DNA from: Eledone cirrhosa
Lineage: Eukaryota
Assembly (NCBI GenBank): GCA_964016885.1
Contig: OZ024743.1
Span: 147,932,001 to 147,996,000, forward strand
Reading direction: 5' to 3'
Length of the DNA stretch: 64,000 bases
The notes below the pieces were generated by a model. That model searched no databases, had not been told where the DNA came from, and worked only from the letters and a program-made list of their open reading frames with translations. The position numbers were made by a program, and so were the translations under genes. Below are positions 16,181 through 16,297 of the stretch, piece after piece (position 1 is the stretch's first letter; every line of letters starts with the position of its first letter).

Positions 16181-16297
16181 AAATAACAGATTAAAGTTTA
16201 AGCAAAGAATCGGTGCGTTCACCCTTAACGGGATCTTCTGAAGATCCTCTAAAGGGTGAAAGCAACCATATTTTGCTTAAACTTTAATATGTTATTT
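16181..16297. mobile_element. Fold-back made of two copies of the 3' end of the 7245-9530 PLE family
   Basis: Left arm nearly identical to 7252-7312; centre tcttc-T-gaaga lies on the hammerhead core. Confidence 0.88.

Follow-up and report, generated by a model that had tools for sequence, protein, structure and literature searches.

How do two copies of the same retrotransposon 3′ end come to be joined head to head within a ribozyme? The question is posed by a short cassette (16181-16297) in a 64,000-nucleotide stretch of Eledone cirrhosa contig OZ024743.1, referred to here as the window. The cassette is a 117-base DNA hairpin composed of two ribozyme-bearing ends of a Penelope-like element (PLE) arranged head to head. 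A preliminary description had derived both arms from the hammerhead ribozyme (HHR)-bearing terminus of a PLE in the same window, had placed the fold at the self-complementary TTC-W-GAA inside the ribozyme core, and had ascribed it to a microhomology-driven template switch or to twin priming. The cassette and its surroundings are made up as follows:

16046-16180, no strand assigned: (TA)n tract, the presumed target site, to the left of the insertion
16181-16242, minus strand: left arm, a 5′-truncated PLE 3′ end near-identical to the main family (60/62 to 7253-7314), with core CAGAAGA and the GAAA box changed to GAAC
16236-16242, no strand assigned: junction palindrome TTC-T-GAA common to both arms, its axis (16239) being the U4 position of the hammerhead core
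16236-16300, plus strand: right arm, a 5′-truncated PLE 3′ end, likely of a sibling subfamily (56/65 to 7314-7250; loop changes)
16238-16244 (CTGAAGA) and 16258-16261 (GAAA), plus strand: ribozyme parts of the right arm, with helix III intact and helix I of 2 bp
16301-16351, plus strand: AT-rich linker with a (TA)n run, from the right arm to the tail, presumably part of the insertion
16352-16407, plus strand: homologue of the PLE tail segment (38/44 match to 9497-9540), the probable right end of an insertion spanning 16181-16407

The two arms (16181-16238 and 16240-16297) pair at 49/58 positions around a single central T. As RNA, the cassette has a minimum free energy (MFE) of -56.1 kcal/mol (z = -12.7), and 0 of 200 shuffled sequences were as stable. 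In comparisons within the window, the left arm (16181-16242) was identical to 7253-7314 at 60/62 positions (E = 3e-25) and the right arm (16236-16300) to 7314-7250 at 56/65 positions (E = 4e-17). The hammerhead core pattern, with up to 3 mismatches allowed, occurred at 3 places in the window, namely both arms and the PLE 3′ end, where 0.03 were expected. The origin of both arms from the HHR-bearing terminus was thereby borne out, as were the position of the fold inside the core (TTCTGAA at 16236-16242) and the presence of CAGAAGA on the minus arm and CTGAAGA on the plus arm. We regard it as nearly certain that the cassette stems, by whatever route, from a PLE. It occurs once in the window, and it is flanked by (TA)n on the left and by AT-rich sequence on the right; the flanks, where a target-site duplication would lie, are (TA)n. 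A fold-back sequencing or assembly artefact appears to be ruled out, because the arms differ from each other at 9/58 sites.

The source element (7250-9541) is a 5′-truncated, Hydra-clade-like PLE on the minus strand, with the following parts:

7250-7333, minus strand: PLE 3′ end with a proposed type I hammerhead fold that does not reach the Rfam gathering score
7334-8246, minus strand: PLE 3′ UTR with an internal direct repeat (7408-7530 and 7549-7670), from self-comparison and contig coverage
8247-9497, minus strand: 5′-truncated RT/GIY-YIG-type ORF with the Hydra-clade motifs YRDDGL, CxCX5C, CxxC and CxH
9496-9541, plus strand: tail segment capping the truncated PLE, apparently inverted relative to the body (joints at 9495-9506; depth rise at 9479-9541)

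The ORF (8247-9497) gave no Pfam match at E 0.01. Homologues at E ≤1e-20 numbered 691 among 3353 candidates, and 119 of the 120 listed were 39-46% identical. A CxCX5C linker is present, as are CxxC and CxH around a conserved E and N, without CCHH, which fits the Hydra clade as defined by Craig et al. through CxCX5C, CxxC and CxH (PMC8557442, in its available text). The RWK and DKT motifs of the Hydra-clade N terminus fall outside the truncated window copy; among 7 aligned homologues, RWK was found in 5 and RWR in 2, and DKT in 5, the others having DKS or lacking the motif. One of the top homologues (P0003) reads by eye nearly letter for letter like Hydra-2_Amil in the available part of the PMC8557442 supplement. 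Two further traits of the clade, an HHR close to the 3′ end and a (TA)n insertion site, are also present in the source PLE, with core U4 changed to A, and an inverted 5′-truncated copy has been noted for Penelope-13_HM (PMC8557442, available text). The main family seems to differ from the clade by its CAGAAGA core, and the window copy is without the N-terminal motifs. We therefore describe the source element as Hydra-clade-like, a likeness in motifs as distinct from a position on a tree. A second, decayed Hydra-like PLE lies on the plus strand at 48931-50330, with an HHR at 50265-50287 and a similar stem II design.

The ribozyme-bearing 3′ end belongs, as had been proposed, to the PLE and not to an independent neighbor, because helix I pairs across 7314 (14/14 pairs) and because contigs of public runs X4 and X5, which differ at 6 letters each, extend over 7246-7728 and 7246-7642. 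A loose (TA)n end before 7248 was seen in 91 contigs. We considered runs X4, X5 and X7 as related species and rejected this; they are likely carry-over, because they comprise only 2, 5 and 27 low-depth contigs bearing the majority letters of run X1. In related metagenome loci (n = 7, 37-43% protein identity), an HHR-like core was found 3′ of the ORF in 5/7 and an inverted copy of the HHR end in 0/7, a count made uninformative by the fact that five of the loci look like one family.

The hammerhead fold proposed for the PLE 3′ end contains helices Ib (9 bp), Ia (5 bp), II (3 bp) and III (4 bp), with 21/21 proposed pairs valid, the core CAGAAGA at 7312-7306 and a predicted cut at CUU, between 7272 and 7271. 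The fold has an energy of -12.8 kcal/mol compared with an MFE of -15.6, and Rfam at gathering score returned 0 matches in the window, this hammerhead included. Letter 7311 of the core is not among the 40 differences listed of 175; the X4 contigs carry no T>A change, and X5 carries one, at 7406. CAGAAGA is probably the majority core of the main family. This family is very abundant and yet seems to carry the U4-to-A change (7312-7306), and it may have been amplified with a crippled ribozyme. One contig of depth 14.3, with a joint from 7271 to 7253, seems to hold 7253-7271 as a short tandem whose unit starts exactly at the predicted cut; in this single case, the 3′ cleavage product may have been copied.

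In the cassette, the plus strand contains all of the core CUGANGA, GAAA and an NUH site, and the minus strand contains CAGAAGA and GAAC. Helix I has 2 contiguous bp on either strand, as against 5 and a further 9 in the PLE, so that its 5′ strand has indeed been lost, and the fold is dominated by the hairpin, which sequesters the remainder of the ribozyme. With helix I reduced to 2 bp and the rest sequestered, we predict that the cassette does not self-cleave. Nor does the canonical core of the plus strand point to selection, since any join at TTC-A-GAA places CTGAAGA and CAGAAGA on opposite strands. The product would thus be a dead insertion, from which a 58-bp dsRNA hairpin could form if it is transcribed; siRNAs from Penelope inverted repeats are known (PMC3681739, available text), and transcribed hairpins of this kind would feed dsRNA pathways.

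Several features lay beyond the preliminary description: the GAAC of the left arm, the PLE's own CAGAAGA core, the unequal kinship of the arms to the PLE, and a tail homologue at 16352-16407. To take the last of these, 16363-16406 matched 9497-9540 at 38/44 positions (E = 1.6e-10), and 0 of 2000 shuffled sequences matched as well. The homologue is oriented relative to the left arm as the tail is relative to the PLE body, as expected of a one-sided tail, but a 51-nt linker bearing (TA)n intervenes and the homologue could be a separate insertion. From the sequence, we think that the insertion probably extends past the hairpin to 16407. A convincing homologue of the linker (16301-16351) was not found within the window. 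A unique 41-nt snippet (7054-7094), which lies in the TA tract beyond the PLE 3′ end, was rejected as a homologue of linker or tail, as its TA-rich part alone aligns. Within the tail homologue, the minus-strand string CCGAAGA...GAAA (16377-16361) was likewise rejected as an HHR, being without helices and missing from the main-family tail. In the full element, the tail would lie downstream of the ribozyme, a placement suggested by a single locus and by analogy.

Contigs from public run X1 reveal what this family usually leaves behind. Run X1 yielded 26,056 contigs on the element (7250-9541). Their summed depth, which does not equal copy number, started at 2.56 million in the first bin, had dropped to 79 thousand close to the truncated end and was up again, at 881 thousand, in 9479-9541. 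All of the best 15 of 130 joints connect a truncated 3′ piece to a constant segment that starts at 9495-9506, and in a second joint table 9 of the 12 rows listed (of 65) join a short 3′ piece to that same tail. We read the constant segment as the PLE tail. On this reading, 16181-16407 would be the usual product of the family, with a tail-side copy about 115 nt longer that reaches the ribozyme core. PLE insertions with a median of 128 bp are known (PMC9977147, available text).

The contigs also bear on whether the core attracts breakpoints, as the preliminary description had implied. In the best-supported joints, 18 of 20 distinct truncation points lie in 7264-7320; within this range, which was picked post hoc, 3/18 fall at the core (7306-7316) against 3.5 expected. 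Strand-changing joints numbered 0 among the best-supported 15 of 130 (depth ≥74, with single pieces at about 6-30), a cut below which single-copy junctions fall, and very abundant junctions could be missed if their contigs break up below the length needed for a call. A breakpoint preference was therefore not borne out, and the ribozyme core is not supported as a fold-back hotspot. Two palindromes of at least 6 nt are present within 7250-7320. That the axis lies in the core is probably accounted for by the frequent truncation of this family less than 70 nt from its end and by the core holding one of these two palindromes, and not by ribozyme chemistry. Among the nine inverted pairs of the window, the fold axis lies about 10 nt or less from the core start in 3 (the cassette, 16584-16728 and 54191-54332); by eye, one other axis is about 20 nt upstream of the core and the rest are far off or without a clear core. 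These 3/9 axes leave a weak core preference possible.

The same results weigh on the idea that the cassette is one copy of an amplified palindromic non-autonomous element resembling a MITE or a retrozyme and mobile as a whole, or that the core is a true fold-back hotspot after all. A second hairpin family speaks for it, being present at two independent loci (16523-16722 and 54130-54333, 95% identical) that both fold at or just before the core, but these two copies are unlike at their centers. Given in addition the absence of a strand change in the best 15 of 130 joints, the lack of an excess of truncation points at the core and the single cassette in the window, we regard this explanation as very improbable. 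A MITE is expected in numerous uniform copies that are bounded by terminal inverted repeats of the transposase type and by a fixed target duplication. The cassette is present once in the window, its ends are PLE 3′ ends, and the best 15 of 130 joints show no strand change. A non-LTR retrozyme is built of units in head-to-tail tandem, every one of which carries a complete type I HHR (10.64898/2026.07.22.740005, available text), whereas the cassette is head to head and contains no complete HHR.

Whether the two arms were copied from the same template is the central issue. With the shared junction set aside, departures from the PLE are found at 2/55 sites of the left arm and 8/55 of the right, an asymmetry that is not significant alone (p = 0.093; binomial p = 0.11). 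The tail homologue and the right arm are each 86% identical to the main family, compared with 97% for the left arm, and the comparison of the left arm (2/55) with right arm and tail combined (14/99) gives a Fisher p of 0.053. The right-arm changes are also unevenly placed. Loops II and III account for 14 of the 55 positions and hold 6/8 of these changes (hypergeometric p = 0.002). The 8 changes form two clusters and one single and possibly represent just three events; moved as three blocks in a permutation, their concentration in the loops has p = 0.024. One of the other two changes is wobble-compatible and one breaks distal helix Ib, and 0 hit the core or helix Ia/III. On the left arm, one of the two changes hits the invariant A15.1. 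Judged by these substitutions, the right arm looks like a sibling lineage selected as RNA, and the left arm like neutral decay. Pattern scans for a true copy of the cassette or family returned 0 in metagenomes, 0 + 0 in viral sequences and 0 in the second scan of genomes; the lone genome-scan match is a bacterial MAG with unrelated flanks and was taken as chance.

Head-to-head structures of this type have been described in endonuclease-bearing PLEs. In the available text of Arkhipova et al. (2013), self-priming is invoked for pLTRs that are inverted head to head, carry palindromes at their junctions and have a tail at one side only (PMC3846280), and the same inverted structure, together with (TA)n targeting, is reported by Craig et al. 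(2021) (PMC8557442, available text). The cassette is a real and minimal case of this insertion shape: the 5′-truncated 3′ ends lie head to head, with a palindrome or overlap at the junction, a probable one-sided tail and an AT-rich target. It differs in size, the arms being 58 nt with no ORF between them and the pLTRs about 180-220 bp. Mixed-subfamily arms, as apparent in the cassette, were not found described in the available portions of these two papers.

Applied to the cassette, self-priming would mean that a single template, cDNA or antisense, snapped back at TTC-W-GAA, with the arms later diverging unevenly or one of them being converted from the main family. Palindromic inverted junctions have been interpreted in this way in print (PMC3846280, available text), the second hairpin family in the window has near-identical arms (67/71 and 67/69), and the arm asymmetry by itself has a p of 0.093. 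The clustering of right-arm changes in RNA loops (p 0.002-0.024) would be unexpected from neutral DNA decay, however; the tail homologue has the right arm's divergence too; and the stem at TTC-W-GAA would be only 3 bp around 1 nt. We therefore think self-priming unlikely here, and two templates fit the unequal arms and the diverged tail homologue better than a snap-back does.

Two templates could also have been brought together in separate events. An older sibling-subfamily copy (right arm, linker and tail) may have been joined by a later main-family insertion in the adjacent (TA)n, with a microhomology join at the core and deletion of the DNA in between. A complex holding two RNAs would then not be needed to explain unequal arms, PLE 5′ ends joined by microhomology and lacking a target duplication are known (PMC3846280, available text), and several different repeats are nested within the TA tract of the cassette. 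Such a join would nevertheless have to hit the exact mirror position in both copies, and pairs of the same geometry with matched arms are found elsewhere in the window; we consider a two-step history quite improbable.

The reading that we favor, and hold to be on balance probable, is that the cassette represents two 5′-truncated PLE 3′ ends joined in one insertion, each nicked strand having primed its own reverse transcription, probably on RNAs of two sibling subfamilies. We infer a sequence of events in which the endonuclease would nick both strands of (TA)n. One strand would prime at a proximal start site just past the ribozyme, and the copying of about 60 nt would give the left arm. The opposite strand would prime at a distal start site at the tail end. 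In the usual product, this second cDNA would halt after about 45-55 nt to leave a truncated body and an inverted tail, as at 7250-9541; in the cassette it would continue for about 170 nt, via the tail and linker into the ribozyme core. Finally, the two cDNA ends would anneal at TTC-W-GAA, with a perfect 7-bp duplex if the core of the second template was CUGAAGA and 3 bp otherwise.

Priming in LINE-1 offers a partial parallel. There, twin priming involves two primers, an inversion and a microhomology join, and the inverted segment comes from a stretch of the same RNA that does not overlap the other. The common product of the main family, a body with an inverted tail, would arise likewise. The cassette differs in that the same 58-62 nt are present twice. 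For PLEs, support for two-strand priming comes from Anolis Poseidon in vitro (Frangieh et al. 2024), where both strands are cleaved and extended, two RT start sites bound the tail, a dimer is predicted and HHR cleavage is dispensable (PMC11167929, available text). These features resemble the scheme above, although Poseidon belongs to another clade, and neither inverted products nor two-RNA chimeras were found in the available text of PMC11167929. Opposite-strand pairs of minimal HHRs that stem from truncated PLEs lie 100-700 bp apart (Cervera and De la Pena 2014; PMC4209133, available text), whereas those of the cassette overlap in the core and helix I is destroyed. Of the mechanism originally proposed, two-strand priming with microhomology joining is thus plausible and fits the published in vitro work, but a switch within one molecule fits the unequal arms poorly. 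In the literature searched, which takes in few subscription papers and not the older Penelope structure reviews, neither a two-template reading of PLE inverted junctions nor a fold inside an HHR core was found.

In itself, the cassette is ordinary retrotransposon debris, and its value is as a clue to mechanism. How the inverted repeats and one-sided tails of PLEs come about is treated as an open question in the available text of PMC8557442, PMC3846280 and PMC11167929, and the forward-looking point of the cassette is its hint of two templates. Self-priming predicts arms of the same subfamily and two-RNA priming predicts mixed arms; in a family with very high copy number, sibling subfamilies and short truncations, arm pairing is countable from the assembly alone. 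If two templates were used, tail-capped micro-insertions and mixed-subfamily hairpins would preserve in the genome the evidence needed to decide how PLE inverted repeats originate. We suggest tentatively that a PLE RNP, probably dimeric, loads two RNAs primed from opposite target strands, and that inverted PLE insertions are two-template chimeras and not self-primed hairpins. A possible corollary, equally speculative, is that the 5′ edge of the ribozyme is a mildly favored joining zone for such chimeras.

Apart from the cassette, the window, whose repeats have an octopod look, contains eight inverted pairs. In 6/8 (16584-16728, 54191-54332, 15676-15864, 54470-54832, 51524-54058 and 38393-38536), one arm ends in (TA)n and the other runs into unique sequence; 41597-41907 and 22279-22599 do not fit this pattern cleanly. 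Decayed HHRs are present in both arms of pair 15676-15864, and the spacer of 54470-54832 contains another (54638-54666). In the second fold-back hammerhead family (16523-16722, 54130-54333 and 60641-60844, two of these copies being independent), the arms match almost perfectly and a tail of about 60 nt is present on one side. The copy at 54130-54333 retains a complete HHR on the plus strand, with a helix I of 7 bp and a GUA site, and a decayed fragment lies at 48272-48381. At 51524-54058 and 58050-60558 are PLEs with a GIY-YIG ORF, whose inverted ends measure about 270 bp and whose tail, about 33 nt long, is one-sided. They lie in a tandem duplication of 6.5 kb (51535-57491 and 58050-64000) that is almost 100% identical and is possibly recent or an assembly duplicate. 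On the minus strand, a compact hammerhead-like motif with a palindromic helix III and a GUA site (38267-38243) has no tie to an ORF. A SINE-like dispersed repeat of about 185 bp is present in more than 10 copies, several in TA tracts (6662-6847, 12826-13009, 14774-14955, 47518-47701, 56473-56665 and others). LINE-like remnants at 181-627 and 1272-1937 (minus strand) and at 43376-43852, which gave no Pfam match, appear by eye to be endonuclease-like and ORF1-like.
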